Assembly: GCA_020721205.1 (NCBI GenBank)
Contig: DYNF01000010.1
Coordinates: 1-54,865 of the forward strand
DNA: 54,865 nt
Reading direction: 5' to 3'
From: Prochloron sp. SulCav_FS08_3_32_3330
Lineage (GTDB): Bacteria; Cyanobacteriota; Cyanobacteriia; Cyanobacteriales; DYNF01
In this document: positions 1,172 through 51,708 of the stretch, piece after piece
Numbering within the stretch: the first letter of the stretch is position 1
Layout of the letters: every line of letters begins with the position of its first letter
Program-made: the position numbers and the translations under genes
Notes under the pieces: generated by a model
What the model was told of the DNA's origin: nothing
Database searches by the model: none
What the model saw: only the letters and a program-made list of their open reading frames with translations

Positions 1172-1260
1172 AAAAAAAATTTAAAATGCAAAGTTAATCT
1201 GATTTGACTTCCTCACCGCCCTCCGTTTCACTCGCATGGCGGTGATTCCTACTAAAATAG
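1172..1260 (-). ncRNA. Candidate TnpB guide RNA (omegaRNA/reRNA) scaffold at the 3' end of tnpB / right end of the IS
   Basis: Minus strand just downstream of the tnpB stop carries a stem-loop caccgccatgcgagtgaaacggagggcggtg (7-bp GC stem). In IS200/IS605 elements the omegaRNA spans the tnpB 3' end and right end. This is inference only. Confidence 0.25.
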
Positions 1261-2472
1261 TGTTAATTGCTCAAATCTATTTTCTCGGTGGGTTGACGCT
1301 TCACGGGATGTTGCTACTTTAGAAGTAGTCTTACACGCTCCTCCACGTCCGTTTAATGTCTCCGAATGCCCTCCGGCGACTAAAATATTCACACTGGCAT
1401 TAACATCTCTATCGTGATTTGTACCGCAATTTAAACAAGTCCACTCCCTAATATTCAACTCTTTTTTACCACCTTTAAAGCCACAAACAGAGCAAGTTTG
1501 AGATGTGGGTGTCCATCTATCAATTACTCGAAAATCCCTCCCGTACATTAAGGATTTAGCTTCTAACATAGTTCGAAAACTACGCCAACCTAAATCACTA
1601 ATCGCACGGGATAATTTTCGATTTTTCATCATTCCTGAAACATTCAAATCCTCTAAAACAATTACTTGATTTTCGTTAATTATTTTAGTTGACAATTTAT
1701 GTAAAAAATCGCTTCTAGTATCAGAAATCTTAGCGTGAAGTTTAGCTAATTTCTTTCTAGCTACTTCCCTTCTATTACTACCTTTTTCTTTTCTTGATAG
1801 ATTTCTTTGTAACTTTCTTAAACGCTTTAATTGACGTTTTAAAGGTTTAGGAGATTTAACTTTTTCCCCATTACTTAAAGTAGCAAAATCCGTTATTCCT
1901 AAATCAATACCTACTGAGTTATTATTCTCAGGTAATTGTTCAGGAGTAAACTCCACTACAAAGCTAACAAAGTATCTATCAGCAGAATCTTTAATGATAG
2001 TAACACTAGAAGGAATAGCGGGTAATTCTCGACTCCAGATTACTTTTATATCGCCTATTTTAGCTAAGTAAATGTAATCAGAATTAGGACATATTTTAAA
2101 GCCATTATCTGTAAATCTAGCTGATTGTTTTGACTTTCTTTTTTTAAATTTAGGTGGTTTAACTTTCTTTCCTTTTCTCTTACCTTTACAGGAGTTAAAA
2201 AAGTTAGAATAACCTTGTTCTAAATCTCTTAAACTTTGTTGTAAAGGAATAGCAGAAACTTCTGTTAACCAGATAGTTTCCTCCTCTTTCTTGAGTAAAG
2301 TTAATCTTTTAGAAAGTTCAGTATTTTTAGGCTTTTTCTTATTTTCTTCATACTCTTTTTTACAATGAGCTAAAGTATCGTTCCAAACAAACCTACAACA
2401 ACCAAACAATTGAGACAAATGTCTTTTTTGTTGGTTAGTTGGGTAAGCTCTGTAACGATAGCGTAGTTTCAT
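1252..2472 (-). CDS. tnpB: IS200/IS605-family OrfB transposase / RNA-guided endonuclease TnpB (IS1341-like, no TnpA present)
   Basis: 406 aa with N-terminal MKLRYRYRAYPT...HLSQLFGCCRFVWN typical of OrfB_IS605. RuvC-I is IDLGITDF, RuvC-II is VIVLEDLNV, zinc finger is CSVCG...CLNCG and RuvC-III is HDRDVNASVNI. All catalytic residues are present. Confidence 0.85.
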   Translation of the reverse strand: MKLRYRYRAYPTNQQKRHLSQLFGCCRFVWNDTLAHCKKEYEENKKKPKNTELSKRLTLLKKEEETIWLTEVSAIPLQQSLRDLEQGYSNFFNSCKGKRKGKKVKPPKFKKRKSKQSARFTDNGFKICPNSDYIYLAKIGDIKVIWSRELPAIPSSVTIIKDSADRYFVSFVVEFTPEQLPENNNSVGIDLGITDFATLSNGEKVKSPKPLKRQLKRLRKLQRNLSRKEKGSNRREVARKKLAKLHAKISDTRSDFLHKLSTKIINENQVIVLEDLNVSGMMKNRKLSRAISDLGWRSFRTMLEAKSLMYGRDFRVIDRWTPTSQTCSVCGFKGGKKELNIREWTCLNCGTNHDRDVNASVNILVAGGHSETLNGRGGACKTTSKVATSREASTHRENRFEQLTLF

Positions 2473-6914: not shown

Positions 6915-7470
6915 AAGCAACAGCAACAGGTTGAAACCTGTTGGGGAAAAAAGGAGGGCGTTTTCATTTTCCTGAATGCAACGGGTTGAAACCCGTTGCT
7001 ACATAAGCAAAACCTGCTTACGCAGGTTGAATTTTTTTAATATTAGTTAATATTTAATCTTAAAACTCGTAAAGACGGGTTTTGTTTGGGTAGCAACAGG
7101 TTTTAACCTGTTGAAAAAAAAGAATGAAAACGCCCTGACTTTAATCTTAAAACCCGTAAAGACGGGTTTTGTTTGGGTAGCAACGGGTTTTAACCCGTTG
7201 AAAAAAAAAGAATGAAAACGCCCTGACTTTAATCTTAAAACCCGTAAAGACGGGTTTTGTTTGGGTAGCAACAGGTTTTAACCCGTTGAAAAAAAAGAAT
7301 GAAAACGCCCTGACAGGTAAGATGCCTGTTTCACGGTTGAATTTTTTTAATATTAGTTAATATTTAATCTTAAAACCCGTAAAGACGGGTTTTGTTTGGG
7401 TAGCAACGGGTTTTAACCCGTTGAAAAAAAAGAATGAAAACGCCCCGGGAAAAAAAGGAGGCTTTTTTAT
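6915..7470. repeat. Tandem/shuffled array of hairpin repeat modules from the same family as the MITE at 21-283 and the element at 30575-30736
   Basis: Repeated units of about 88 bp: cttaaaacccgtaaagacgggttttgtttgggtagcaacgggttttaacccgttgaaaaaaaagaatgaaaacgccctgactttaat occurs 4 times. Two copies of the dual-hairpin + T-tract module ...tacataagcaaaacctgcttacgcaggttgaatttttttaatattagttaatatttaatc are also present. It lies between the convergent GGDEF and map genes. Confidence 0.8.
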
Positions 7471-8433: not shown

Positions 8434-8886
8434 TTATTCCCCAGCAATTATTAAAGCCTCCTGTTTCAAATTATAACTAAGGTAAAAACCATTATTTTCT
8501 AAATCATCTAATAAAGGTTTAATTTGATCAATAATTCCTTTTTGTTTAGCTTGAATTAAAATTCCTATTGTACCAATAAAAGTAACCTTCATTTTTTTTG
8601 CTACTTTACGAGCTTGTTGATCATCTAAAATAACTTTAATCTTTGTCTCATAAGCAAGGGTGATCGCTTCCGCCTCACCATCATCAACTAACATTTTTAA
8701 AGATAAGGTTAATCCTTGATCAGAAATGGACTTAATTTTTAACCAAGATAAACTAATCCCAAACTCCTTAGCGACTTCAGGAGGAATAAAAATTGAATCA
8801 AATAGTTGAGGTAAAATATCTAATTGACCAATTCTTTCTAAACCTATTAAACAGGTACTATCTGCAATAATAATTTGATTATTCAT
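8434..8886 (-). CDS. DUF3368 (PIN-like) domain protein, toxin-like partner of a UPF0175 gene
   Basis: 150 aa with N-terminal IIADSTCLIGLERIGQLDIL typical of DUF3368. It overlaps the upstream UPF0175 gene by 4 bp (ATGA). Confidence 0.6.
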   Translation of the reverse strand: MNNQIIIADSTCLIGLERIGQLDILPQLFDSIFIPPEVAKEFGISLSWLKIKSISDQGLTLSLKMLVDDGEAEAITLAYETKIKVILDDQQARKVAKKMKVTFIGTIGILIQAKQKGIIDQIKPLLDDLENNGFYLSYNLKQEALIIAGE

Positions 8887-9168: not shown

Positions 9169-10038
9169 TTATAACACTCCCATATCCTTAAAACAACGAC
9201 GAGTTAATTCAATCCGATAAGCGGGATCATTTTCGTTACGAATATCAATATTTGTCGCAAAAAAATAAACTTTTTCCCCCCTTTCCACATAACCCACATA
9301 CCAACCAATATTAGGTATTTCCTCATTACCAAAACCATACCAACCAGTTTTAGCCCTAATAGTATAATCAGGGGTTTTTTCACTAATCATAATATCTTTA
9401 ACAATAGACATTGTACGATCAGAAAAAGGTAAATTATTCTCATACAAACGCTGTAAAAAATCAATTTGTGCTTGAGGAGTAATTTGTAAATTTCCATTTA
9501 ACCAAAATTGATCAATATCCTCTTTTTTTCCAATATTTTGATTACCATAACTCACTTTTGTGAGCCATTCCTGCATTTTATCATAACCTACTCGTCTAGC
9601 TAAAACTTGATAAAACCATACACCAGAGACCTTAAAAGCCTCTCTTAAATTCAAATCTCGATTCCATGTCGGCAGATCTCTTGTAATACCATCCCAAGTT
9701 AAAACCGCAATTTCATCCTCAATAACCTCCGTTTCTAAAGCAATTAAAGAATTAAGAATTTTAAAAGTGGAAGCAGTAGGAAAAGACGTTATATTACGTT
9801 GAGGATTATGTTGAAAAATACGGTCATTTTTTAAGTCATAAATAATAATTGATCCTTCCACATTTAACTCCTGAAAATGTCTGGAAAAATCAAGATTTTG
9901 AGCAACTTCTAAAGTAGGAAAAATATCCCTTTCAGACTTGCCTATAGAAAAAGCAGATTTTGCTGTTTCAACTAATATTAAATTAGCAGAAATTAAGCAA
10001 ATCAAAGTAAATTTAGTTAAGACCAATATTTTATTCAT
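9169..10038 (-). CDS. Class D (OXA-type) beta-lactamase-like protein with signal peptide
   Basis: 289 aa with a hydrophobic N-terminus. Motifs are S-T-F-K (STFKILNS), S-x-V (SGV), Y-G-N (SYGNQN) and K-T-G-W (AKTGWYG). There is no BlaR1-type membrane/protease region. Confidence 0.7.
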   Translation of the reverse strand: MNKILVLTKFTLICLISANLILVETAKSAFSIGKSERDIFPTLEVAQNLDFSRHFQELNVEGSIIIYDLKNDRIFQHNPQRNITSFPTASTFKILNSLIALETEVIEDEIAVLTWDGITRDLPTWNRDLNLREAFKVSGVWFYQVLARRVGYDKMQEWLTKVSYGNQNIGKKEDIDQFWLNGNLQITPQAQIDFLQRLYENNLPFSDRTMSIVKDIMISEKTPDYTIRAKTGWYGFGNEEIPNIGWYVGYVERGEKVYFFATNIDIRNENDPAYRIELTRRCFKDMGVL

Positions 10039-10156: not shown

Positions 10157-13100
10157 TCATAAAACTCTAAAAAAGTTTTCCGCCAATCCAGCGATATGAG
10201 TAGCCTGATCAAGCCCATTGATAACCCTTCTGGCATTATAAAAGTCTCGCATTGACCCATTAACATATTGACTCAGACGACGACTCGTAAAAGTACCATC
10301 ACGCATTCCTAAAACTAGGATTTTAGCAGAAATAGCATAATCAGTGGCTTTATCAGGATAATTCACCAGATCAATCCCTAAACGCTTAGACCAATCAGTA
10401 TAATTACGTCGTCCCGTAATTTGGACAAAACCTCGACCTTTATAGCGTGGTCCATCTCCAGCGTTAATATTGCCTAAATCCCGCCGTCCCTCGTACGCTT
10501 GACCCGTCGCAAATTCTACCATCCATTGCCCCAAACGAGACTCATGTTGAGCCGTTGCTAAAATATACGCAATTTGTCCCTTATCTACAATATTATATTT
10601 CTGTGTTTCTTGTAGAATTAAAGGAATAGATTGAGAGGCATAGCGTTTAATAGTAGCATTAGTAATAACTTTTATAAGATTATTAACAAGATTAAGATTA
10701 CTAAATTGGCGGAAAGGAAAATAAGTATTAATCGGTTTTTGAGCTAATAAAGACCAAGTTTGTTTCCCGACAATACCATCAGGGTTTAATTTATTATTTT
10801 TTTGAAAAGTTTTAACGGCGGTTTCAGTAGCTTTACCAAATAAACCATCTATTATCTTAATTAAATTATATTGTTTTAATAAAGTTTGTAAAGATTTCAC
10901 TTCATTAATTAACTCAGGAAAATCAATCCCATCTTGAAGTTTTAAAACAGGTTTAACGATTGCTTTTCCATCAATTAAACTTTCTAAAAATTGCCAAGTT
11001 TTCTCTCCAATCACCCCATCAGGAGTTAAATTTTGAGTTTGTTGAAAAGTTTTAACAGCCTTTTCTGTTTCCGCACCAAATAAACCATCTATTAAAGTAT
11101 TTTCAGGTAAAAAATGATAGGTTTTTAACATAGTTTGTAACTTTTTAACCACATCTTTTAATTCAGGAGTTTTAATCCCATCTCCTAATTTTAAAACAGG
11201 ATATTTATTAATCACAGGAGTTGTCACCACAGGAGATTTAATCGGAGTAGTAGGGGGAGTTAAAACAGGAGGATTTTGTTGCAAAAATTGCCATGTTTTT
11301 TGTCCCACAATACCATCAGCTACTAAATTTTTACTCTTTTGAAATTCTTTAACAGCACTGTCTGTACTTTTCCAAAATAGTCCATCTATAATCGTATTTT
11401 TTGGTAAAAATTGATGTTTTTGTAACAGAATTTGTAACTGTTTTACCGCCTCTTTTAAGTTAGGGGTATCAATCCCATCTTTAAATTTTAAAATAGGGTA
11501 TTTATTGACAGAATTATTAATAACAGGAGGAGGAGAAATAGGAGGTTGAATTTGAGGAATAGAGGGCGGATTTTTTTCTAATAATTCCCATGTTTTTTGT
11601 CCCACAATACCATCAACTACTAAATTTTTACTCTTTTGAAAAGCTTTAACACCTTCCTCTGTGGCTTTCCAAAATAATCCATCTATAACAGTATTTTGAT
11701 GTAAACTATTCCATTTTTTTAATAAAGTTTGTAATTTTTTTACATCCTCTTTCAGATTAGGAGTATCAATCCCATCTCTTAATTTTAAAACAGGATATTT
11801 TTTCGCAGAAATAGAAGGAGTATTAACCGGATTTTTTGCTAAAGTTTTCCCTGTTTTTTCGCCTAACTTTTCTAAAGCATTCCAAGTGATCTTAGCGACA
11901 ATTCCATCTACTAATAAATTTTGACTTTTTTGTAATGCTTTAACGGCGGTTTCTGTTTTATGCCAAAATAAACCATCAATTAAAGCATCTTGAGGTAAAA
12001 ATTTATATTGTTTAAGGAGAGTTTGTAAATATTTTACTTCTTCTTTTAAGGTTATATTATAAATACCATCTCCTAATTTTAAAGTGGAATGTTTTTTAGT
12101 TGAAGACACATTAAAACCGATCATTTTAGGCGGATTTTCTTGACTTAAATTTTCCAGATTAGGATTAATTTCCTCCTCTTTTATTTGAGGAGTAAATATT
12201 TTTTCAGAAGGTACACTTTCTAACTTAGTTTTAGGAGTAACATTTTCTTCACTTTCTAAAACTTCTAAATTTTGAGAAAAAGTAGATAAATTATTAGATA
12301 AATTATTAGAAGTTTGTAAGCCTTCTAAAGCCATCCAAGTATCTTGATTAACAATCCCATCCACAGTTAAATTATTTCTTTGTTGAAAAATTTTAACCGC
12401 CCCTTCTGTTTCACGCCAAAATAAACCATTAACTTCCAGATCAATCCCTAATATTCCCCATTCTTGTAACAAAGTTTGTAAATATTTTACTTCATCTTGT
12501 AACTCAGGAGTATCTATACCAGAACCTAACTTTAAAGTTAAATGATTTTTCCGATTAATCTCATTAATCTCATTAATTTCGATAGTTTGATTAGTTAAAA
12601 TAACCGGATTTTGACTAACATTTTCTTCCTTTAATAAACCTTGTTGAAAACCAAATTGATTTTGTTCATTTTCTGGATTAATTTCTGAGATTAATTCCTG
12701 ATCTTCTTTATTTTCTAAAGCCCTCCAAGTCTCAGGATTAACTATCCCATTATCAGGTAAATTTTTACTTTTTTGAAAAGCTTTAACTCCTTCTTCTGTT
12801 TCTTGCCAAAATAAACCATCAATAAAGGAATTTTCAGGAAAAAAGCCCTGATTTTGTAATAATGTTTGTAATTTTTTTACTTCTTCTTGTAATTCTGGTG
12901 TATTTAAACCATCTCCTTTTTTTAAATTAGGATAGGAAATATTTTTATAAGAATTAATTAGATTAAGATCAATATTTTTAATTTCTTCATTAGAGTTATA
13001 ATTAGAATTAGAATCAGGAAGATTAACTATTTCTAACTCGGTTATTTTTTCCTTAATTAAAATCGGCTCATTTTGGACTTCAATCGTTTCAATATTAGTT

Positions 13101-14029
13101 AAATTATCGGGAATAATTCTATTTTCTAAAACTTGCCAAATTTCTCGATTAACAATCCCTGTTTCCCCTAAATTACGACTTTTTTGTAATTCTTTAATCG
13201 CCGTTTCTGTTTCTGTCCAGAAAAAACCATCTAAGGAGAAATTTTGTGCCAAAAATCCTTGTTTTTGTAATAATTCTTGTAAATATTTTACTTCCCCTTG
13301 TAAATGAGGAGTATTAAGTCCATCTCCTATTTCTAAACTAGGATATTGACTTTCAAATTGATTAATATTTTGATTAATATTCATAGTTTCAGTCCCATTA
13401 ATAGATGAAGAAATAGAAAAATTTTGATTAGGAGAAATCTGATTAGTTTCAATTTTTTCCTCAATCATAGATTGAATAACTTGACTTTCTAAACTCTGCC
13501 AAGTTTGTTCATTTACGATCCCATTTTGTAATAAATTATGACTTTTTTGAAATTCTTTAACCGCTAAGTCGGTTTTTTGCCAAAATAAACCATCTGTTAA
13601 AGAATTTTTCTCTAAAAATTTCTGCTCTTTTAATAAAGTTTGTAAATATTTTACCTCATCTTGTAACTCAGGAGTATTAATCCCATCTCCTAATTTTAAA
13701 ATATGATGTTTACTCGACTTATTACTTGCCGAATAATCAATTAAATTAGCAAATTTTGGTTCATTTTTTACCGTAGAAATAAGATTAGAATAAGACTCTA
13801 AAAAAGTCCAAGTTTGTTCCCCCACAACTCCATCTGTTGTTAAATTTTTACTATTTTGAAAAGCGATCACCGCTCTTTCCGTTATCTTGCCAAATAAACC
13901 ATCAATGAGGGCATTTTCTGGTAAAAAACTTCCGGCTTTTAATAAAGTTTGAAGTTCTTGCACATCTTTTTTAAATTCTGGAGTTTCAAAGCCGCTACCA
14001 ATTCTTAAAATAGGTTTTTTATTAGTCAT
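10157..14029 (-). CDS. Giant cell-wall hydrolase-like protein: about 10 tandem peptidoglycan-binding (PG_binding_1-type) repeats followed by a C-terminal GH19 (chitinase/lysozyme-like) catalytic domain
   Basis: 1290 aa. Repeats follow L-K/R-x-G-D-G-I-x-T-P-E-L-x-x-x-V-K-x-L-Q-x-L-L...D-G-L-F-W-x-x-T-x-x-A-V-K-x-F-Q-K-S-x-N-L-x-x-D-G-I-V. C-terminal domain has AQHESRLG (GH19 H-E-S/T acid), a second Glu about 14 residues on and RYKGRGFVQITGRRNY matching GH19 GRGPIQL(T/S)WNYNY. No obvious signal peptide. Confidence 0.7.
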   Translation of the reverse strand: MTNKKPILRIGSGFETPEFKKDVQELQTLLKAGSFLPENALIDGLFGKITERAVIAFQNSKNLTTDGVVGEQTWTFLESYSNLISTVKNEPKFANLIDYSASNKSSKHHILKLGDGINTPELQDEVKYLQTLLKEQKFLEKNSLTDGLFWQKTDLAVKEFQKSHNLLQNGIVNEQTWQSLESQVIQSMIEEKIETNQISPNQNFSISSSINGTETMNINQNINQFESQYPSLEIGDGLNTPHLQGEVKYLQELLQKQGFLAQNFSLDGFFWTETETAIKELQKSRNLGETGIVNREIWQVLENRIIPDNLTNIETIEVQNEPILIKEKITELEIVNLPDSNSNYNSNEEIKNIDLNLINSYKNISYPNLKKGDGLNTPELQEEVKKLQTLLQNQGFFPENSFIDGLFWQETEEGVKAFQKSKNLPDNGIVNPETWRALENKEDQELISEINPENEQNQFGFQQGLLKEENVSQNPVILTNQTIEINEINEINRKNHLTLKLGSGIDTPELQDEVKYLQTLLQEWGILGIDLEVNGLFWRETEGAVKIFQQRNNLTVDGIVNQDTWMALEGLQTSNNLSNNLSTFSQNLEVLESEENVTPKTKLESVPSEKIFTPQIKEEEINPNLENLSQENPPKMIGFNVSSTKKHSTLKLGDGIYNITLKEEVKYLQTLLKQYKFLPQDALIDGLFWHKTETAVKALQKSQNLLVDGIVAKITWNALEKLGEKTGKTLAKNPVNTPSISAKKYPVLKLRDGIDTPNLKEDVKKLQTLLKKWNSLHQNTVIDGLFWKATEEGVKAFQKSKNLVVDGIVGQKTWELLEKNPPSIPQIQPPISPPPVINNSVNKYPILKFKDGIDTPNLKEAVKQLQILLQKHQFLPKNTIIDGLFWKSTDSAVKEFQKSKNLVADGIVGQKTWQFLQQNPPVLTPPTTPIKSPVVTTPVINKYPVLKLGDGIKTPELKDVVKKLQTMLKTYHFLPENTLIDGLFGAETEKAVKTFQQTQNLTPDGVIGEKTWQFLESLIDGKAIVKPVLKLQDGIDFPELINEVKSLQTLLKQYNLIKIIDGLFGKATETAVKTFQKNNKLNPDGIVGKQTWSLLAQKPINTYFPFRQFSNLNLVNNLIKVITNATIKRYASQSIPLILQETQKYNIVDKGQIAYILATAQHESRLGQWMVEFATGQAYEGRRDLGNINAGDGPRYKGRGFVQITGRRNYTDWSKRLGIDLVNYPDKATDYAISAKILVLGMRDGTFTSRRLSQYVNGSMRDFYNARRVINGLDQATHIAGLAENFFRVL

Positions 14030-14138: not shown

Positions 14139-14545
14139 TTAATCAGATACAATTATTGTACCGATCATTCCTGCCTCTGTATGTCCTGCTACTTTACATC
14201 TTAAAGGATAAGTTCCTTTCATCCCCACATTTCCCACCTCAACTTTTTGCGTCCAAATGCGATCGGCAAATTCTCTGGCGTAAAATAATGTTTCGTGGGG
14301 CTAGGATTGTCTAATAATAATTTATATTTTTGCCCCACTACAAATTTTAACTCATTTGGGACAAATTTTAATTCCCCAAAAGGTGTTCCCAGATGAACTT
14401 TTACCTCTACTATCTCTTGATTCGGTGCGATCGCATTAACGGCTTGAGCATCAGGAAAGGAAATAATACAGTAGCAAAAAATACTTATAAGTATTAGAAT
14501 TAAAAAAGATGAAAGTTTTTTCTTCATCCCTAGGAATGGATCCAT
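14139..14545 (-). pseudogene. Type-1 copper protein (cupredoxin; plastocyanin/amicyanin-like) split by a +1/-1 frameshift
   Basis: ORF 14219-14545 encodes a signal peptide plus N-terminal cupredoxin half (...NPSPTKHYF...) ending ...LRWEMWG stop. An adjacent frame continues MKGTYPLRCKVAGHTEAGMIGTIIVSD stop (to 14139) with the Cys-x2-His-x4-Met copper ligands. The junction is at a GGGG run (14222-14226). Combined length of about 133 aa fits a cupredoxin. Confidence 0.55.
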
Positions 14546-17088: not shown

Positions 17089-19719
17089 ATGACTACCACC
17101 GAATATACAAGTTATACTTCAGCTTCCGCCGAAATTAATACAGGGGTAATACGTCTTAAACCTCAACAATTTATTCACATTTTAGATAATAATACCGGGG
17201 TGACACGCCTTGAAGTGGGACCTCAAACGATTACGTTAGGGGATGCGGAAAGGCTTGTTTTACAACCTACTCAGATGATTATTATACCCCCACGTCACTA
17301 CGGTATTATTGCTAATCCGGTTCTGCGATCTGAGGATAATCAGCCGATCGCTGATCAATATGGGCAAATTCGTTTAAGCTATGGAGATGAGGAAATTCGT
17401 TTTGCTCAAGAGCCTTTTCCTCTGTATCCGGGTGAAGAATTGAAAGGAAAAGTCACAAAACTTCAAGTAGTTGAAACGAATCAAGCGTTAAGATTAAAAG
17501 CAATTCGAGATTTTTCTGAGGCAATTAATATTAATAATGAAACAGAAATGATTAACCGCATCGCTGGAGATGAATGGTTATTTGAAGGTCCCGGTACTTA
17601 TAATCCGCGCATTGAAGTGGAAATAATGGAAAGTGTGAGTGCTTTGATTATTAAACCTAATCAGGCTTTGCGGTTGATGGCACGGCAAAATTGCGTAGAT
17701 CGTCAAGGTTATCGTCGTAAAGCGGGGGAAGAATGGCTGGTAAGGGAAGAAGGGGCTTATTTACCCGGTGTAGATGAAGAAGTGATAGATGTAATTAATG
17801 CTTATGTACTAACGGAACAAAAAGCTCTACATTTAAAAGCTAAACGCACTTTTACGGATCTTTTTAACCGTCAACGGAAAGCAGGGGATGAATGGTTAGT
17901 AACTTTTGAGGATACGGAGATTCATCTTCCTGACGTTTATGAGGATGTAGTGGGAGAAGTGAGGATTACGACTTTAACCGATCGCCAGTGGTGTGTGGTG
18001 TTAAACCCGATTGATAGTAATGGTAAACCCCAGTTAGGTTTTCGGGAAGTACGTCAAGGCTTAACTTCTTTCTTTTTACATCCGGGGGAATATTTGGAGA
18101 GTGGCATCCGTAATGTGTATGTATTAGGAGAGCAGGAAGCGTTATTATTAAAGGCAAGAGAGACTTTTGCTGAGGTGGTAGATCAGACCAATATCACTCA
18201 TCAACCCGGAGATTTATGGATGATTACAGGACCAAGAGATTATATTCCAAGAGTAGAAGTAGAAGTAATTGAAACGAGAAAAGCTATACCTTTAGATAAA
18301 AATGAAGGTATTTATGTGAGGGATATTCAGAATGGAGAATTAAAGTTAGTGAGTGGACCTCAAGCTTATATGTTAAGTCCTTATGAGGATTTATGGTCAA
18401 AAGAACTACCAAAAGTGGTAGAAGATTTAATTATTCAAAAAATTGATCCTTTTTCCGATCGAGGAGGACAACAATATCGGGATATGACCTATTTAAGAGA
18501 AGCGGAGGCAGTTTCTGCTCCTGAAATACCTACTAAAAGGGATAAAACCAGAGCAGTGGTTTTTCATGTGCCTCAGAATGCGGCGGTACAGATCCACGAT
18601 TATAAAGAGCGTACGGCAAGAACGGTTTTTGGACCTGATTTAGTGATGTTAGGACCTGATGAATCCTTTACGGTGCTAAGTTTATCAGGGGGTAAACCCA
18701 AACAGGCTAATTTAATTAAATCTTTAGCTTTATTATTAGGTCCTGATTTTATGACGGATATTTTCACCGTAGAAACTTCGGATCATGCGCGTTTACAGTT
18801 ACAATTATCTTATAATTGGTATTTTGATATAGATAAAAATGATGAAAAAACAGCATTAAAACTCTTTCAAGTACCGGATTTTGTGGGAGATGCCTGTAAA
18901 GCGATCGCATCGAGAGTAAGGGGGGCAGTAGCCTCACAAAAGTTTGATGAATTTCACCGTAATTCTGCCAAAATTATTCGTCATGCGGTTTTTGGTATAG
19001 ATGATGAGGGTAAAACTCGTAATGAATTTCGTTTTAATGCGAATAATTTAGTTATTACCAATATTGATATTCAATCCGTTGAACCAGTGGATGAAGAAAC
19101 TCTTAAAAGCCTTCAAAAATCCGTACAAATTGCCATTCAAATTACCACCGATGCTCAAGAAGCCGCCGCTCGTCATGATGCTGAACGCATTGAACAAGAA
19201 GCGAAAGCCCGTTTAGAGCGTCAAGTCATTGTGGATCAGGGAGCGGCAGAAGAACAGAAAAAACATCTTTTAGAATTACAAGCTCAGAATGCGGCGATTA
19301 AATCCTCCGGTCAGGCGATCGCTGAAGCAAAAGCTAAAGCAGAAGCCTCACAAATCGAAGGACAATTAGCCGTACAATTAGCTCAACAGGATGCTGAGGC
19401 TAAACAGATTCGTGCCGAGTCAGAATTGGCATTATTATGCGCTCGTCAAGAGGCAGAATTAGCTCATAAACAAGCTTTAGTTAACCTCGAAATTGAACAA
19501 GCTCAGAAAATGGCAGAAATTACGACGAAGGAATATGAGGCAAAAGTAGCCGCTTTAGGTAGTGAAACCATACAGGCGATCGCCCAAGCGGGACCGGAGT
19601 TACAGGCGCGTTTATTACAGGGATTAGGTATTCAAACCATGTTAATAACGGATGGTAACACTCCCATTAATTTATTTAGTACAGCACAGGGTTTAATTCA
19701 ATCTCAAATAAAAGATTAA
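17089..19719 (+). CDS. mvp: Major vault protein (MVP) homologue, full length and eukaryote-like
   Basis: 876 aa. Tandem MVP repeat domains of about 55 aa (QALRLKAIRDF..., AGDEWLFEGPGTYNPRIEVEI, QALRLMARQNC..., AGEEWLVREEGAYLPGVDEEV, KALHLKAKRTF..., AGDEWLVTFEDTEIHLPDVYEDV). Shoulder region has VPDFVGDACKAIASRVRGAVAS. C-terminal Ala/Glu/Gln-rich cap-helix coiled coil (AQEAAARHDAERIEQEAKARLERQ...). From memory these motifs are near-identical to metazoan MVP. Confidence 0.85.
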   Translation: MTTTEYTSYTSASAEINTGVIRLKPQQFIHILDNNTGVTRLEVGPQTITLGDAERLVLQPTQMIIIPPRHYGIIANPVLRSEDNQPIADQYGQIRLSYGDEEIRFAQEPFPLYPGEELKGKVTKLQVVETNQALRLKAIRDFSEAININNETEMINRIAGDEWLFEGPGTYNPRIEVEIMESVSALIIKPNQALRLMARQNCVDRQGYRRKAGEEWLVREEGAYLPGVDEEVIDVINAYVLTEQKALHLKAKRTFTDLFNRQRKAGDEWLVTFEDTEIHLPDVYEDVVGEVRITTLTDRQWCVVLNPIDSNGKPQLGFREVRQGLTSFFLHPGEYLESGIRNVYVLGEQEALLLKARETFAEVVDQTNITHQPGDLWMITGPRDYIPRVEVEVIETRKAIPLDKNEGIYVRDIQNGELKLVSGPQAYMLSPYEDLWSKELPKVVEDLIIQKIDPFSDRGGQQYRDMTYLREAEAVSAPEIPTKRDKTRAVVFHVPQNAAVQIHDYKERTARTVFGPDLVMLGPDESFTVLSLSGGKPKQANLIKSLALLLGPDFMTDIFTVETSDHARLQLQLSYNWYFDIDKNDEKTALKLFQVPDFVGDACKAIASRVRGAVASQKFDEFHRNSAKIIRHAVFGIDDEGKTRNEFRFNANNLVITNIDIQSVEPVDEETLKSLQKSVQIAIQITTDAQEAAARHDAERIEQEAKARLERQVIVDQGAAEEQKKHLLELQAQNAAIKSSGQAIAEAKAKAEASQIEGQLAVQLAQQDAEAKQIRAESELALLCARQEAELAHKQALVNLEIEQAQKMAEITTKEYEAKVAALGSETIQAIAQAGPELQARLLQGLGIQTMLITDGNTPINLFSTAQGLIQSQIKD

Positions 19720-19828: not shown

Positions 19829-21235
19829 TTAAACCTGATTTTTTCTTAATTGTTTAAAATATTCTTTTGCAATGCGAATTAATTGAAAACTATGCTGATT
19901 ATTATTTTCTTGCTTTAAAAAAGCTTGTTCTTTTAAACTTTGTAAAGCAATTAAAATCTCAGAAATAGAATAACTTGATCCTAGATAATCAATAATTTCT
20001 TTAGTAGACATTTTTTGACCATTTTGACTATTAACAAAAAAACTAATAATTTCATTTTCTAACTTTGACCATCTTTGAGATTGTTTTAACAAAGTTTCGG
20101 AAAAATTACCAATTAAAATTGTCCCCAAATTAACAAATTCAGAAATATTCCCATCAAACAATTCCTGAATATAATCACTAACTTCATTCAAAAGAAAAGG
20201 ATTACCACAATAATCATTAATTAAAACATCAAAATCTTTTTCTCGATCAGCCATTAAACCTTTTTGTTTCAATAATTCTTTCCCATCATGTTTAGATAAA
20301 CCTGTCACAGTTTTTATTTTGACTGCATCGAGATTTTTTGCCAGTAAATTAACCTCAAATAAAGACTCTTGAGAAGTAATTAATAAACAACTTTGATGAG
20401 AAGATTCCCCAATTCTTTTCAGAAAAGTACCATAATTTTCAAAACCTTCTTTATATTTTTTAAAAGGATCTTTTTCCTTAATTAATAATTCTCCCCGATC
20501 TAAAATTAAGAGACATCGGTATTTATGTAAATAATAAATTAAAGTTTCTATTTGTTGATTAATATTATTAGTTTGGGGATAATCAGGAGCAATTTGTTTG
20601 AGAAAATCAGCTAAAATTTTATCAAGAACCGGATTATAAGCTAAAGATTTCCAATTAATAAATTGAAATTGATTTTGATTTTCCTCAATCAATTTTTTCG
20701 CCAAAAAAGTTTTACCCGATCCCCCTATTCCTACTAAATTAACAAGATGACAATTCTCCTCAATAATCCATTTTTTTAGATGATTTAATTCAGTTTTTCT
20801 GCCATAAAAATTAGCAATTTTCGGGGATTGTACCAAATCATAATAAGGAGAAGATTCTGAATCAATAATAGGCACAAAAGTTTCTGAAATTTCACACAAA
20901 CCTCTGATCGCAGAAGCAATATTTTCCTTATTCAGATGACACTCAAAAATACCAGAAAGTATTTTCAATAAACGAGGACCTACCACTTTTTGTAAATAGG
21001 TTTCTTGATATCCTGTTAAATCCGCTATTTCCCGATAAGTTTTTCTTTGTAATGCCCCCTCTAAAAACTTAGTTTGTACATCATTCAAATGTTTTTTTGT
21101 CTCCCGAAAAACCTTTTTATCTAAATAAGCAATTATACTTTCTATTTCCTGTAATTTTTCATTACTATTTTTATTTAAAGAGATATCATCAAAAGTTGTT
21201 TGTTGATCTTGATTCATTTCCATTAGGCATACCAT
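19829..21235 (-). CDS. STAND NTPase: N-terminal sigma70-r4/LuxR-like HTH domain + NB-ARC (AP-ATPase) domain + winged helix; no repeat sensor domain
   Basis: 468 aa. Walker A is VGIGGSGKTFLAKKL, Walker B is CLLILDRGE and the GxP-like motif is YCGNPFLLNEV. N-terminal about 130 aa (KHLNDVQTKFLEGALQRKTYREIADLTGYQETYLQKVVGPRLLKILSGIF) is paralogous to the N-terminus of the 172-aa protein at 52896-53414. Confidence 0.75.
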   Translation of the reverse strand: MVCLMEMNQDQQTTFDDISLNKNSNEKLQEIESIIAYLDKKVFRETKKHLNDVQTKFLEGALQRKTYREIADLTGYQETYLQKVVGPRLLKILSGIFECHLNKENIASAIRGLCEISETFVPIIDSESSPYYDLVQSPKIANFYGRKTELNHLKKWIIEENCHLVNLVGIGGSGKTFLAKKLIEENQNQFQFINWKSLAYNPVLDKILADFLKQIAPDYPQTNNINQQIETLIYYLHKYRCLLILDRGELLIKEKDPFKKYKEGFENYGTFLKRIGESSHQSCLLITSQESLFEVNLLAKNLDAVKIKTVTGLSKHDGKELLKQKGLMADREKDFDVLINDYCGNPFLLNEVSDYIQELFDGNISEFVNLGTILIGNFSETLLKQSQRWSKLENEIISFFVNSQNGQKMSTKEIIDYLGSSYSISEILIALQSLKEQAFLKQENNNQHSFQLIRIAKEYFKQLRKNQV

Positions 21236-23756: not shown

Positions 23757-26700
23757 ATGAGTACATCTACCATTCTCGATCCAATTCTTGAAAATCCGAT
23801 TGAAGATTTATCTGATCCCATTCTCGAAAATGTGATCTCATATACATCTGATCCCATTCTCGAAGAAGCTTTACAAGACGTATCAGCAACATTAGCAGAA
23901 TTTGTCTATAGTGAGGATTTTCTCCCAACGATTGAAACTGTTTTCGGTAATAATTACGATACTGCTACCTTAGAAAACATCCGTCAACAGTGGGCAAACG
24001 GTGATTTTTCTAACCTACCTCAGATTGAGATTCTTTCAGGTAGCCAGTTACAGGGTGCGAATGCGGCTTATGCTGGTAAGACGAATACTATTTATTTTTC
24101 TTCTGATTTCTTAAGTCAATATGGTGATAATTCCCAAGCGTTAAAGAGTGTTTTAATTGAGGAAATTGGGCATTATGTGGATTATCAAATTAATACAGTT
24201 GATACCGTTGGCGATGAAGGGGAATATTTCTCTAATTTAGTGCGAGGGATTAAGTTGAGTGAGAGTCAAGTTCAGAGTTTAAAACAAGAAGATGACTCCA
24301 ATGTTATCAGTGTAAATAATCAGGATATCATGGTTGAACAATTTCTTCCTACAGGAACTTATACAGATGGACTTGATGGAGGGCGTTATGTTTTTCAAGC
24401 TGAAACAGCAGACTATATAGAAAAGTTTTTTGGAATACAGATCAATAACTCTTATCAGTACGATTCTGGAGACTCTTTAATTCTAAGAACACAATATTCT
24501 GGCGATGAGAAAACTTTTTTTGAAGGTGGTGGATTAACCGCAGGAATTAGTTACAATGGAGGCTCTTTTGGTGCAGGGTTTAAAGCCTATGCAGGTATAA
24601 ATTTAGGTGAAATAGATTTTGATCTGCCTTTACAAGCTCTTTTAACTGCAAGTAATTCAGGTAAAACACTTAACTTTGATTTTACAACTATTTTTGATGC
24701 CAAACTGGACTATACAATTCCTTCTGCCTATGCAGTTTTAGATTCAATTTTTGAGTATAATATTGGCTCACTGGATATATTTGCCAGTGCTGCAGGTGAA
24801 TCTATAGAAAGGACTATTTTTAATGGTGTGTCTGATACTTGGACACACAGAATGGTTAATATCAATACCTTAAATGATCCGATCGTACAAATAAATTTAT
24901 TACCCGGTCAAGTTAATTTTTTATCTTCTTCATTGAGTATTAATTCAGTCTCTTTATTAGGAGGTTTAGCAACTTTTAAAGCAAGTATTCTTCCCAATTT
25001 TAATTTTAGTATGGAAAACTCATCTACAGAGGATCAGTTTTCTATCAAGATTAGTAATCAAAGACCTCCTGATCCTGAAGATATTACTCCGGGTGATCCT
25101 AATCCTGATCCGGCTCTTCCAGATGAGTTAGCTCGTATAACCTTAAATTTTGATAAACTTCTTGATCTAGGTTTAACTGCTTTTGCAGGATTTCCATATC
25201 TTTCTGAAGATGTAACTGTTGGACCTTTCAGTGCAGGATATCGGTTACTACCAATAGAATTAACTGGTATAGCAAGTGCAATTTATGAACTTGAAGTTGG
25301 TATCAGAAATACTGAACCCAAAATAATTGAAGGTGAATTTTTAGATATTGCTACCTCATACACTGAGCTTGATGAATTACTTGCCAAAGATACAGATAAT
25401 GATTCAAAAATAGATGTCACATTTGAACTAAATCCAGATATTTTCTTGAAACCAAACTTGGCATTAGACTGGCAAACAGAGTTTAATGTAGATATCGGAA
25501 GACTTACTGCAAAAGTAGATTTTAACAAACTTCCATTTCCGTTAAATTCTATTCCATTTCTAAACAATATTAGTGGAAGTGTTAATCTTATTGATTTACC
25601 TGAAATTGTTATTGATGGATTAAGTTTTCGCATTGATATTCTTGATAAGCTAGGTATTCCTAAATCTGATTTAAGTATCTCTTTTAACGATCTATATGCA
25701 ATGTTTAATAATGGTCAAAAACCTGACTTTAACAAAGTTTCTGTTGAGATACCTTTTAATGCAATTTATCCAAATATAGGAACAGCCCAAGATGATGTGA
25801 TGAGCTTACCTGAATATTTTGGAGCAGAAAACCTTTATGGTGAAGCTGGTAATGACATTCTTTACGGTAATTCTTCTGCTAATCGAATTATGGGAGCAGA
25901 AGATAATGATACTATCTATGGTCGAGCAGGGAATGATCAACTTTACGGAGAATGGGGGAATGATCTTCTTTTAGGTGAACAAGGTAGTGACTATATTAAT
26001 GGTGGTACTGGTATAGACACCGTAAGCTATAGTAATTCAGCAAATGGTGTTATTGTCAATATTAATCAATCTCTTAATTATGGCAATCAAAAACTAACTA
26101 CATTTGATCTTGAACCAAATTTCTTTATTGGTGCTGGTCAAGCTTTAGACGGTTTTGGCAATGTTGATAGTTTGGCTAACCTTGAAAATATCATTGGTTC
26201 TGCTTATAACGATATTTTAATCGGCAATGCCTTAAATAATATTATTGAAGCCGGATCTGGAAATGATATTTTAATCAGTAGTGCTGGTAGTGATCAATTA
26301 TTGGGAAATAGCGGTATTGATACAGCAAGTTTCCGCCGTGATCCTAATGGTGTTTATGTCAGTCTTCAAGATAACATTGCAATAGATGGTTTTGGTTATA
26401 TTGATAATCTTTCCAGTATCGAAAATGTTGTTGGTTCTAATTTTGATGATGAAATATGGGGTAATAATGGGATCAACGTCATTCTCGGTGGTGCTGGAAG
26501 TGATCTTGTTTATGCTTTAGATGGAGATGATCTAGTTTATGGAGAAAGTGAAAACGATACCATCTTAGGTGGTTCTGGGAATGACTACATTGAAGGTAAT
26601 GATCAAGATGATCGCCTGTTTGGTAATACCGGAAATGATGTCATCTCAGGAGGTAATGATCAAGATTATATCGAAGGTAACGAAGGTGATGATCGCCTCT

Positions 26701-29700
26701 TTGGTAACTCTGGTTATGATACCATCTTAGGTGGCTCTGGTAACGATTATATCGAAGGTAATGGTGAAGATGACAACCTTTACGGAGAATCAGGCTATGA
26801 TACCATTTTAGGTGGTTCTGGTAATGATTACATCGAAGGTAACAGCGAAGATGATCTAATCTATGGTGAATCAGGTTTTGATATCATCAAAGGTGGTACA
26901 GGCTATGACACTATTTATGGTGGTTCAGAAAATGATTATATCGAAGGGAATGAACAGGATGATCGTATTTTTGGTGAAACTGGAAATGATACCATCTTAG
27001 GTGGTAATGATAATGACTACATTGAAGGTAACGATCAAGATGATAAACTTTATGGTAATACCGGAAACGATATTATCTTAGGTGGCAATGATCAAGATTA
27101 CATTGAAGGTAACGAAGGTGATGATCGTCTTTACGGTAACTCTGGTTATGACACCATTTACGGTAACTCAGACAATGATTATATCGAAGGTAACGATCAG
27201 GATGACAAACTTTATGGTAATACCGGAAATGATGTGATCTTAGGTGGCAAAGATCAAGATTACATTGAAGGTAACGAAAATGATGATCGTCTCTTTGGTA
27301 ACAGTGGCAACGATCTCATCTATGGTAACGATGGCAACGATTATATCGAAGGAAATCAAGGTGATGACCTAATTTACGGTGATAATCCCTTTAATCCGGG
27401 TGTTGATACCCCACCAACCGACAATACCAACCATCAAGATACTATCTTTGGTAACGATGGTAATGACCAGATTCACGGTGGAGAAGATAAAGATATCATC
27501 TCAGGTGGTATTGGTAATGACCTCATCTATGGTGACTTCAAAGACGATCTCTTTGCAGGTACAGGAGATGTCATTGACGGTAACGAAGGAGATGACACTA
27601 TCTTTGGTGGTGGTGGCGAAGATACCATACATGGAAACGATGATAACGACACCATCCGAGGTGAAGGCGGGAATGATCTAATCTTTGGTGATGCCGGAGA
27701 TGACTATATTACCGGAGGTGATGGTGATGATACCATTTACGGTGGTACAGGCAATGACCTCATTTTTGGTGATAGCGGTGTTGGTAATGACCTCATTTAC
27801 GGTAATGAAGGTGATGATACTTTACATGGGCGTGTTGGTAACGATCGCATTTACGGCAATGAAGATAATGACTTAATTTTTGGTGAAGAAGGAGAAGACT
27901 ATATCGAAGGTAACACAGGTAATGATACTATTTCCGGTGGTGATGGTAACGATCACATCTTAGGAAATGAAGGTACAGACCTCATTCACGGTGATGCCGG
28001 AGATGATAATATTACTGGTAATGAAGAAAATGATACCATTTTTGGTGATACTGGTAATGACTACATTGAAGGTAACGATGGTAATGACCTAATCTCAGGC
28101 GGTGCTGATAATGATACCATTTCGGGTAATATCGGTGATGACTTCATTTATGGTGATAGCGGACAAGACACTATTCACGGTAACGAAGGCAATGACCTGA
28201 TCAGTGGTGGTACAGACAACGATATTATTTATGGTGATACCGGAAGCGATCGCATTCAAGGAGATGACGGCGATGATAATATCTATGGTGGTGCTGATAA
28301 TGATATTATTTCGGGTAACAACGGTGCTGATAATATCTATGGTGAAACCGGAAACGACCTAATACATGGAAACGATGGTGATGACTACCTCAGTGGTGGT
28401 GATGGTACTGATCTCATCTATGGTGACAATGGTAACGATAACATGGACGGTGATCTAGGGGAAGATCAACTCTTTGGTGGTGAAGGTAACGATACCATGC
28501 GTGGTGGTGATGATAACGACTCCCTCTATGGCGAAAATGGTGCTGATATTATGGAAGGTAATAACGGTAATGATAGCCTCGCTGGTGGAGCAGGTAACGA
28601 TATCATGAGTGGCGGTACCGGAGATGACTTTATCAATGGTCAAACTGGTAACGATATCATGTATGGTGATGATGGTAACGATACCATGTATGGAGAAGAA
28701 GGTGATGACAAGCTCTATGCAGGAAATGGAGATGATTACCTCGTAGGAGGTGCAGGTGGTGACTTATTAGATGGTGGTGCAGGTAAAGACTTAATTTCTT
28801 ACTACACATCCAAGGGCGGTGTTACTGTACAATTAAGCTCTGGTCATAATAAAGGTGGCGACGCTCAAGGTGATAATATTACAGGAGTAGAAAACCTTGA
28901 AGGTTCATATTATGATGACTGGCTCATTGGAGATAATGGCAAAAACACCATTATCGGACTTTCCGGTAACGATCGCCTTGATGGAAAAGCAGGTCATGAT
29001 ACCCTATTCGGAGGCTTAGGTAACGACTCTTTAGAAGGTCGTCAAGGAAATGATATCTTAATGGGTGATCAAGGTAATGATTATCTCGACGGTGGCTCAG
29101 GTAATGACTGGCTTTCCGGCGGTTTAGGAGATGATCAACTTTACGGAGGGCGATCGGGTGATGATATCCTTTCTGGTGGCGATGGTAACGACTACATAGA
29201 CGCTAGTTCAGGTGTAGACCTCATTTTCGGTGGTAATGGTAATGATACCATTGATGCAGGTTCTCATAACGATACCGTTTATGGTGGAGCAGGAAACGAT
29301 ATTATTGACGGTGGTACGGGTAGTGATATCCTTTTTGGTAACGAAGGCAATGACACTATTTATGGAGGAATGGATGATAACCTCTTATATGGTGGTCAAG
29401 GTGACGATTTACTCTATGGTGGCACAGGTAAAAGTGTTGATACCTTTGCGATCGCCCTAGCGGAAGGGATTGATACTCTCTTTAACTTCCAAGTGGGTAC
29501 GGATCGGATCGGATTAGTAGGTGATTTTACTGCTAATGATATTCTGATTAACTCAGGTCAAGGAAAGAATAAAGACGTTACCCTCACCTATAAATCTACG
29601 GGAAATACCCTCGCTATTTTGAAAGATGTGCAACTCAATAAAAATCAAACTCTGAATTTTATTGCCCTCAGTTTACCTACGATAGCAGTGGATCCTCTTG

Positions 29701-51426: not shown

Positions 51427-51708
51427 CTAAATTTTAGTAATAGCACGAAAGATAGACCAGGCAAAGACAAGTATAGAAATAGGAGGATAGCAATACCAAA
51501 CAATTTCCCATTGAATTGGAACTTCCTTTTTAAATTTAGTTATCAAGTAACTTAATCCCAAGAAGAATAAGCCCGCAAAACACAATCCTAAAGTGTAAAA
51601 TACGATAAATCCTAATCCTTCACTTGAACCAATTACAATAGATAGTAGTAATGAACTAGGAATCCAGCCAATGAAATATTTGGGTACAAACTTTTTAGTT
51701 TCAAACAT
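51427..51708 (-). CDS. Small membrane protein, 93 aa, 3 predicted TM helices; fourth gene of the operon
   Basis: Hydrophobic segments IGWIPSSLLLSIVIG, FIVFYTLGLCFAGLFFLGLSYLI and YCYPPISILVFAWSIF. Confidence 0.5.
   Translation of the reverse strand: MFETKKFVPKYFIGWIPSSLLLSIVIGSSEGLGFIVFYTLGLCFAGLFFLGLSYLITKFKKEVPIQWEIVWYCYPPISILVFAWSIFRAITKI

Follow-up and report, generated by a model that had tools for sequence, protein, structure and literature searches.

What is a lysin with ten peptidoglycan-binding modules and no export signal doing on the chromosome of a cyanobacterium? The question is raised by a gene in contig DYNF01000010.1 (assembly GCA_020721205.1) of Prochloron sp. SulCav_FS08_3_32_3330, of which we analysed the stretch from position 1 to 54,865 (hereafter the window; all coordinates refer to it). 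The gene encodes 1290 amino acids (aa), in which ten repeats of the PG_binding_1 family precede a C-terminal domain of glycoside hydrolase family 19 (GH19). The initial annotation had described the product as lysozyme/chitinase-like and had considered a prophage-derived or bacteriocin-like lysin or an enzyme of cell wall remodelling. Our overall reading, to which we give an even chance, is that of a domesticated endolysin-type muramidase that would reach the wall only after the membrane has been breached. The components of this reading are held at different strengths: we are highly confident of the biochemical identity, that is, of the domains and the type of enzyme, while the role as a lysis-gated autolysin is put forward tentatively.

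The gene is a single long open reading frame (ORF) with an ATG start, and an open frame of 3.9 kb in DNA of 33% GC, with orthologues under purifying selection, is far beyond chance. An identical sequence is present in a public protein collection (P0121), and the N-terminus is conserved among orthologues. Scans for promoters and terminators gave nothing better than shuffled sequence. The layout is listed below, with the repeats numbered R1 to R10 from the N-terminus and called G-type or W-type after the last residue of the motif DGLFG or DGLFW (pI, isoelectric point).

10157..14029, minus strand: whole gene, a leaderless multi-PG_binding_1/GH19-type lysin, with the stop codon at 10157-10159.
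13793..14014, minus strand: R1, aa 6-79, with the canonical G-type motif DGLFG, acidic (pI 4.7), 73% identical to R1 of the orthologue P0122.
13484..13705, minus strand: R2, aa 109-182, with the W-type motif DGLFW, acidic (pI 5.2).
13121..13342, minus strand: R3, aa 230-303, W-type, acidic (pI 4.6).
12710..12931, minus strand: R4, aa 367-440, W-type, acidic (pI 4.7).
12320..12541, minus strand: R5, aa 497-570, W-type, acidic (pI 4.2), 82% identical to R5 of P0122.
11867..12088, minus strand: R6, aa 648-721, W-type, basic (pI 8.9).
11573..11794, minus strand: R7, aa 746-819, W-type, basic (pI 9.3), with a three-helix PG_binding_1 fold in the AlphaFold2 (AF2) model.
11276..11497, minus strand: R8, aa 845-918, W-type, basic (pI 9.6).
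10979..11200, minus strand: R9, aa 944-1017, canonical G-type, pI 5.7, 84% identical to R10 of P0122.
10739..10951, minus strand: R10, aa 1027-1097, canonical G-type, basic (pI 9.1), immediately next to the catalytic domain.
10160..10729, minus strand: catalytic domain, aa 1101-1290, GH19 fold of the endolysin (GH19_1) type, pI 9.9.
10541..10543, minus strand: codon of Glu1163, the first catalytic Glu, in the H-E-S motif, aligned with the Glu of DS6A and D29 LysA.
10514..10516, minus strand: codon of Glu1172, the second catalytic Glu, at the dyad spacing of +9 and invariant in an alignment of 37 sequences.

By its fold the C-terminal domain is GH19, within which it falls into the endolysin/muramidase branch (GH19_1), and its catalytic machinery is intact. 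Among PDB sequences, those closest to the last 207 aa were LysA of DS6A (9hnv, 8.6e-16) and of D29 (9hqw, 1.7e-11), followed by PWe2, PWe1 and SPN1S, with plant and bacterial GH19 chitinases at 1e-5 or weaker, below the phage lysin domains; with a profile built from 37 relatives, the match to 9hnv improves to 2.5e-26. The AlphaFold model of aa 1020-1290, comprising R10 and the catalytic domain (mean predicted local distance difference test [pLDDT] score 92.4), shows the bilobal, mostly alpha-helical, lysozyme-like fold of GH19, and its best Foldseek matches (probability 1.00) are GH19 endolysins (9ms7, 4ok7, 7r6s and 9eoi), after which the GH19 chitinases rank. Among the PHROG families the domain matches endolysins, phrog_181 at 1.2e-29.

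The catalytic signature that the initial annotation had pointed out, QHES...VEF...RYKGRGFVQITGRRNY, is indeed present, the residues concerned being H1162, E1163, E1172, Q1203 and T1205. E1163 and E1172 align with the dyads E53/E62 of DS6A and E228/E237 of D29, at the same spacing of +9 as E51/E60 in PaGH19Lys of Pseudomonas aeruginosa, and the inactive E228Q chain of D29 (9hnu) carries Gln at the position matching Glu1163. The His and both Glu residues (H-E-x8-E), Q-x-T and I-N are invariant across the 37 relatives and match the list of active-site residues of PaGH19Lys. The classical GH19 signature, [FHY]-G-R-G-[AP]-x-Q-[IL]-[ST]-[FHYW]-[HN]-[FY]-[NY], is derived from chitinases; the lysin reads K-G-R-G-F-V-Q-I-T-G-R-R-N-Y, keeping G-R-G, Q-I-T and N-Y and differing from it at 4 positions, and the solved GH19 endolysins carry the same G-R-G-x-[IV]-Q-I-T-G-x-x-N-Y version.

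The study of D29 and DS6A placed such "loopless" GH19 domains in the CAZy subfamily GH19_1, which comprises peptidoglycan muramidases, and set them apart from the chitinases of GH19_2. PaGH19Lys has been proven to be a muramidase and attacks neither chitin nor chitosan. By analogy with PaGH19Lys and the D29 domain, the lysin is expected to cleave the MurNAc-beta-1,4-GlcNAc bond. The features of GH19_2 chitinases, namely the loops, chitin-binding carbohydrate-binding modules (CBMs, which within GH19 accompany only the chitinase groups) and a best match to chitinases, are absent. The reading of the protein as a GH19 chitinase, with chitin or chito-oligosaccharides as substrate, for which the weak match to the Pfam model Glyco_hydro_19 (chitinase class I) and the label "predicted chitinase" given to relatives in some databases may be cited, is scarcely credible, as endolysins come first in both the sequence and the fold searches and chitinases match clearly less well, the characterised enzyme of the nearest type does not act on chitin, the accessory modules are of the peptidoglycan-binding kind without any CBM, and the chitinase-derived signature is kept only in part. 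Thus, of the "lysozyme/chitinase-like" enzyme first proposed, the lysozyme half stands, in the GH19_1 branch, and the chitinase half is unlikely.

Profile thresholds alone could lead to a different name. PF00182 (Glyco_hydro_19), a model built around chitinases, gives the domain 19.9 bits, under its gathering cutoff of 25.5, and aligns over profile positions 100-148 only, so the HMM check proposed initially holds for PG_binding_1, which is far above its cutoff, but not for GH19; several close relatives do pass PF00182 in precomputed annotations. Conversely, the NCBIfam equivalog model for SleB (TIGR02869, cutoff 236.5) is exceeded at 296.9, a score summed over ten repeats that match its peptidoglycan-binding part. 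We rejected an identity with SleB: the best stretch covers model positions 14-87 of 201, and the C-terminal domain is GH19 and not the catalytic domain of SleB.

Turning to the N-terminal part, the Pfam model PF01471 (PG_binding_1) matches ten stretches (E 2.4e-141; 460.4 bits, cutoff 23), and a hidden Markov model (HMM) derived from the repeats delimits exactly 10 units of 74 aa each (71 aa in R10). A unit consists of the 57-aa Pfam core preceded by a conserved extension of about 15 aa, P-x-L-K-x-G-D-G-I-x-T-P-E-L, through which the conserved unit is longer than the 65-70 aa first estimated, a figure that was otherwise close. The linkers ahead of R1 to R10 measure 5, 29, 47, 63, 56, 77, 24, 25, 25 and 9 residues (360 in sum); those ahead of R2-R6 abound in Asn, Gln, Glu, Ser and Ile, those ahead of R8 and R9 in Pro and Thr. 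Repeats and linkers together account for 85% of the protein length. R10 superposes on the solved peptidoglycan-binding protein 5tv7 with a root-mean-square deviation (rmsd) of 1.2 A over 69 columns. The AF2 model of the W-type repeat R7 (pLDDT 97.2) matches the N-terminal domain of SleB, 5tv7, CtpB and phiKZ gp144 (6tci, 5tv7, 4xxt and 3bkh) at template modelling (TM) scores of 0.76-0.78, with a TM score of 0.78 and an rmsd of 1.7 A for 6tci. All ten repeats are therefore PG_binding_1 by profile, the folds of R10 and R7 agree, and the initial description of a 1290-aa protein with ten such repeats was correct in this respect. Judged from their sequence, the repeats are predicted to bind peptidoglycan, and their number to confer avidity.

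Within the lysin the repeats are 41-69% identical in protein and 60-81% in DNA, and Tandem Repeats Finder reports no array at the repeat period, as the repeats are too diverged and too irregularly spaced; the strongly repetitive DNA that had been anticipated was thus not found. Against the 1351-aa orthologue P0122 the repeats pair by position at 69-84%, above the identity within the protein: R1-R6 correspond to its R1-R6 (69-82%), R7 to R8 (77%), R9 to R10 (84%) and R10 to R11 (73%). The Nei-Gojobori dN/dS for the same comparison lies at 0.12-0.39 in the individual repeats and at 0.10 in the catalytic domain, which is the most strongly conserved part; against the second long orthologue, P0123, the catalytic domain is 76% identical and the whole protein 46%. 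Given this positional orthology and the purifying selection on each repeat, the array is old and not a recent amplification, and its modules have been individually maintained. These values bear on the idea that the protein is mainly a non-enzymatic scaffold or tether of the wall, with a GH19 domain that is vestigial or merely binding. The large share of the length taken up by repeats and linkers, together with W-type repeats and a charge polarity that suggest specialised binding (see below), would fit such a role; it is nevertheless highly improbable, as it is the catalytic domain that is best conserved, with every active-site residue intact.

The protein opens straight into R1, and an upstream extension of the ORF is not possible. 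No signal peptide or transmembrane segment was found, the maximum 19-residue Kyte-Doolittle mean across the whole protein being 0.84. The orthologues begin with the same leaderless sequence, M-x(3-5)-P-[IV]-L-[RK]-x-G-[DS]-G, and so do most relatives that bear PG_binding_1 modules, from 1 to 7 repeats. The protein had been described as signal-peptide-less and chromosomal from the outset, and the hydrophobicity profile and the synteny described next uphold the two points respectively.

The window is an ordinary piece of cyanobacterial chromosome, encoding PsaD, HisB, CobK, DusA, two-component systems, a fatty-acid desaturase and a cluster of sucrose-phosphate synthase, phosphatase and fructokinase. 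DusA reaches no more than 75-78% identity to named taxa (Gloeothece, Xenococcaceae, Crocosphaera and Pleurocapsa), which places this low-GC source near the Chroococcales/Pleurocapsales type of cyanobacteria. The GC content at the lysin gene equals that of its surroundings, with no compositional anomaly. No tRNA and no Rfam RNA family, riboswitches included, was detected in the window, and domain and PHROG searches of the 54 kb found no capsid, tail, terminase, integrase, holin or spanin gene. PADLOC gave no defence-system match for the lysin. A 278-aa desaturase is encoded upstream of the lysin, and a counterpart with 79% identity flanks the 11-repeat orthologue of L003. The gene on the other side, for an M24 methionine aminopeptidase, has counterparts (62-65% identical) immediately downstream of the lysin in L013 and L014, which have 7 repeats each, as well as in L041. 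A chromosomal setting is seen for the third orthologue (L001) too, beside PetL and SLH-OprB porins. Based on the syntenic flanks and the lack of phage genes, we conclude that the lysin is a vertically inherited resident of the chromosome and not a prophage gene. The neighbouring features to which we refer are the following.

8434-8886, minus strand: DUF3368 protein that matches PDC-S70, a candidate system of PADLOC, and is encoded in the interval from the M24 gene to the lysin.
9169-10038, minus strand: OXA-like class D beta-lactamase/PBP-transpeptidase homologue that has a signal peptide and is encoded in the same interval.
14140-14545, minus strand: 108-aa ORF upstream of the lysin, with a signal peptide and a cupredoxin-like body.
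51427-51708, minus strand: 93-aa ORF with three predicted membrane segments, the sole holin-sized ORF with multiple membrane segments outside the annotated genes.

Two of these were considered as partners and rejected. The OXA-like gene, like the DUF3368 gene, is missing between the lysin and the M24 gene in L013, L014 and L041, and as M24 or other genes follow the lysin at orthologous loci, it is not an operon partner. The 108-aa upstream ORF is not a holin: it is a frameshifted cupredoxin whose copper-ligand motif C-x2-H-x4-M (CKVAGHTEAGM) runs on in another frame, and it represents either a plastocyanin-like pseudogene or a sequencing error. Apart from this, in a sibling strain a deletion of about 287 nt spans 8559-8846, in the region of the DUF3368 gene.

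The architectures of the relatives were taken from an exhaustive HMMER scan, since a word-indexed search was biased to proteins of 146-345 aa and missed the window protein itself. With the catalytic domain as query, the scan returned 12,143 proteins at E <=0.001, 305 of them at E <=1e-30. Among the closest relatives are leaderless proteins with 4 (P0168), 6 (P0169), 7 (P0172, L013 and L014) and 8 modules (P0179), so that the module number forms a series of 1, 2, 4, 6, 7, 8, 10 and 11 with the window protein near its top. In named cyanobacterial genomes mostly 1 or 2 PG_binding_1 modules are present, and in other relatives the catalytic domain is fused to S8, M23, CHAP or M15. The best match in a scan of genome contigs is 60% identical. 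Ten to eleven modules occur in only three clusters at 90% identity, represented by the window protein, P0122 and P0123, all from DNA of 33% GC and united as a clade in 60/60 bootstraps of a neighbour-joining tree, which is based on about 190 residues and whose deep nodes are not reliable. All full-length members of the P0122 cluster (10/10) are exactly 1351 aa long, and the sibling strain (98-99% DNA identity) has the same R1-R6 layout, its contigs (L164 and L165) breaking within R6-R10 and thus giving no independent count of those repeats. Because of this constant length and the shared R1-R6 layout, we consider the copy number stable within lineages; the comparison of repeat number in relatives that had been suggested at the outset shows a graded series from 1 to 11.

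Two further observations were made among the relatives. P0123 (1231 aa, L001 9100-10000) has two more repeats upstream of its called start, cut off by a frameshift in R1 and by stops that sit in a hexanucleotide, microsatellite-like linker encoding IQIQ, YRYK or TDTN in its three frames; the interruption could be an assembly error, gene decay or the outcome of slippage-prone sequence. In Hormoscilla genomes (L006, L010, L017 and L034), two lysin paralogues lie 0.2-1.2 kb apart on the same strand.

In the GH19 Engineering Database, PG_binding_1 figures as no more than an occasional accessory of endolysin groups, and our literature searches found no account of cyanobacterial members or of GH19 lysins with many modules. 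The component parts and the two-domain design are already known, and the novelty lies in the extreme number of modules that a GH19 lysin carries here, in its syntenic fixation in the chromosome, in the Trp-type subtype of the repeat and in the acidic/basic polarity.

The last two features concern the repeats themselves. The published peptidoglycan-binding motif is D-G-(Pho)2-G-K/N-G/N-T, and the Gly of its first part is kept in R1, R9 and R10, with Trp in its place in R2-R8. The same pattern is seen in the two long orthologues, P0122 and P0123, and in no other sampled member (1-8 repeats), so the Trp-type repeats look like a new, lineage-specific PG_binding_1 subtype confined, among the proteins sampled, to the three orthologues with 10-11 repeats. 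In addition, charge is unevenly distributed along the chain, with R1-R5 acidic (pI 4.2-5.2), R6-R8, R10 and the catalytic domain basic (pI 8.9-9.9) and R9 at pI 5.7, and the orthologues show a broadly similar polarity. Trp repeats and charge split might together form a second functional unit, an idea to which we assign a low probability. As a tether, the unit might hold a different ligand, e.g., a polysaccharide of the sheath or outer layer on whose sugars the Trp would stack, with a reach of up to about 100 nm across the wall layers. As a safety catch, its acidic part might mask the basic catalytic end within the molecule until the wall is met. If true, either version would be a new principle of targeting or regulation for a lysin.

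How might such a protein work? We propose that a long, flexible string of ten modules ends, at the C-terminus, in a GH19_1-like, inverting catalytic domain (Glu1163/Glu1172), and that the protein would be synthesised in the cytoplasm without an export signal and be harmless as long as the membrane is intact. Access to the wall would be gained when the membrane opens, through a holin-like protein encoded elsewhere, membrane damage or infection. The basic end (R6-R8, R10 and the enzyme) would then attack the thick sacculus of the cyanobacterium, while multivalent binding would keep the enzyme on the wall of its own cell, making lysis fast, local and self-limited. The peptidoglycan of cyanobacteria is thicker and more cross-linked than that of typical Gram-negative bacteria, and ten modules with 360 linker residues, if extended, would reach on the order of 100 nm; it is on this wall and this chain length that the rationale for avidity and reach is based. 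The likely role would be a regulated self-lysis of a subpopulation, for release of contents or as abortive death, and not the release of phages.

Several observations weigh against this proposal. The window yielded neither a holin nor a spanin nor any other device for release; its only candidate, the 93-aa ORF at 51427-51708, lies 37 kb from the lysin, with nothing to link the two. The lack of an adjacent holin is not decisive, however, because Lys of P. aeruginosa, which drives explosive cell lysis, is moved by Hol, AlpB and CidA, three holins, two of them encoded outside the pyocin cluster. The Trp at the conserved motif Gly in 7 of the 10 modules may mean that their ligand is not peptidoglycan. 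Moreover, the outer membrane of cyanobacteria would itself shield neighbouring cells from released lysin, which weakens the argument from tight binding. Finally, the gene most often seen next to the short cyanobacterial homologues is not one for lysis but encodes an M15/VanY-like peptidase, found at 14 of 53 loci and in some cases fused to the lysin, which fits wall remodelling equally well.

Among the alternatives, a housekeeping function in wall remodelling fares best, though we regard it as unlikely. Here the protein would be exported by a route other than Sec or Tat and work in the periplasm of living cells, in growth, daughter-cell separation or turnover, with the modules positioning or restraining the enzyme. 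The stable, syntenic locus under purifying selection agrees with such a function, as does the frequent adjacency or fusion of short members to the M15/VanY-like peptidase, which suggests a wall-processing pair; Firmicutes hydrolases with multiple PG_binding_1 modules and signal peptides likewise resemble ordinary autolysins. Neither the lysin nor any clade member examined has a signal peptide, lipobox or transmembrane segment, however, a leaderless combination of PG_binding_1 and GH19 is an endolysin design, and no linked secretion genes are present.

A use as antibacterial weapon, i.e., a bacteriocin-like lysin or effector whose repeats recognise foreign walls, is very unlikely. GH19-like folds do serve as antibacterial effectors, and the type VI secretion system effector TseP is among the fold matches. 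Yet the lysin has no immunity gene, secretion or delivery system, toxin-type polymorphism, or translocation or receptor-binding domain, Gram-negative targets would require crossing of the outer membrane, and the locus is vertically conserved and not mobile, which leaves the bacteriocin-like character suggested initially without support.

That the gene is the endolysin of an integrated or decaying prophage must be rated remote. The domain family is abundant in phages, with more than 1000 phage records carrying the domain under the names endolysin or GH19 (36-47% identity among the matches listed) and IMG/VR viral contigs reaching 58%, and genes for an IS605-type TnpB and for the DUF3368 (PDC-S70) protein lie nearby. 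Against this, the 54 kb hold neither phage genes nor a tRNA, the flanks are syntenic in at least three other lineages, GC is unchanged, selection is purifying, and the best 80 viral homologues are short (median 245 aa), none carrying these repeats. The term "prophage-derived" in the initial annotation can consequently be kept in a distant evolutionary sense only, the phage relatives being no more than about 47% (GenBank) or 58% (IMG/VR) identical.

Some features of the window that do not concern the lysin deserve mention. At 17089-19719 (plus strand), 3 kb from the lysin, a protein of 876 aa of the Major Vault Protein type has the full eukaryote-type set of domains, with Vault repeats (2.4e-63), the MVP shoulder (7.1e-55), Vault_2, Vault_3 and Vault_4. 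Adjoining it in convergent orientation is a STAND-type NTPase of 468 aa with NB-ARC/AAA_16 domains (19829-21235, minus strand), which matches the PADLOC candidate PDC-S27 weakly. A protein of 2021 aa (23757-29822, plus strand) contains RTX calcium-binding nonapeptide repeats in 47 stretches (E 1.8e-209) and is a likely type I secretion substrate. The IS605-family OrfB/TnpB is encoded at 1252-2472 (minus strand) with HTH_OrfB_IS605, OrfB_IS605 and Cas12f1-like TNB domains, and a relative of 33% identity is found near the lysin homologue of L040. Finally, an 88-nt unit is present in three tandem copies (96% matches) at 7053-7314, with the GC-rich hairpin AAACCCGTAAAGACGGGTTT and a partial copy at 185-242, and could represent a dispersed repeat of small size or an element that bears a terminator.

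These results point to a large family of predicted leaderless, chromosomal GH19 muramidases of the endolysin type, mostly cyanobacterial among the closest relatives, of which the window protein is one of the most elaborate members. A 2022 review on regulated cell death in cyanobacteria makes no mention of endolysins, holins or autolysins. If the lysis role is true, the family would provide testable markers for bloom termination and nutrient release as well as tools with which production strains could be lysed in a controlled way. With from 1 to 11 modules on a single catalytic scaffold, nature offers a ready experiment on the tuning of avidity, which is relevant to engineered enzybiotics. The window protein also exposes a pitfall of annotation, as a protein that passes the SleB equivalog cutoff by the multiplicity of its repeats alone, and fails the Pfam GH19 cutoff although it is GH19, may be misnamed automatically.

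Among known systems, the closest solved sequences are the GH19 domains of LysA (DS6A, 9hnv; D29, 9hqw and 9hnu), which are of GH19_1 and of the same "loopless" type as the window domain; LysA differs in being encoded by phages and in combining GH19 with peptidase or amidase domains and another C-terminal wall-binding domain. PaGH19Lys, or Lys (PA0629; 9eoi), from the pyocin cluster of P. aeruginosa, the closest precedent in function, is likewise a chromosomal, leaderless GH19 enzyme retained by its host and shares the H-E-x8-E, Q-x-T and I-N pattern, but it is a single domain of 209 aa without PG_binding_1 and belongs to a tailocin lysis cassette with a holin, a kind of cassette not found in our window. 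Short cyanobacterial proteins of about 260-370 aa with PG_binding_1, LysM or SH3 modules and a GH19-like domain (Floridaenema, Hormoscilla, Microcoleus and Phormidium) are also chromosomal and 52-64% identical in the catalytic domain, and those with PG_binding_1 share the leaderless N-terminus; they differ in having 1-2 modules, all with the canonical Gly, and in being often paired with or fused to an M15/VanY-like peptidase, and literature searches found no experimental characterisation of them. The Firmicutes hydrolases resemble the window lysin in placing many modules on one wall hydrolase, but these are 4-8 modules, with repeats 25-32% identical, on NlpC/P60, Amidase_3, CHAP or GH25 domains and in many cases behind a signal peptide. 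The same two domain types in the same order, without a leader, are found in the modular endolysins PVP-SE1gp146 and OBPgp279 of phages of Gram-negative bacteria, which share the D-G-(Pho)2-G motif with the canonical repeats and have a related catalytic motif, GRG-x-x-Q-I-T, OBPgp279 itself having two binding sub-domains. Compared to these two proteins of 1-2 modules and about 230-330 aa, which act in phage lysis, the lysin described here has ten modules, seven of them of the Trp type, joined by 360 linker residues and encoded at a syntenic chromosomal locus.

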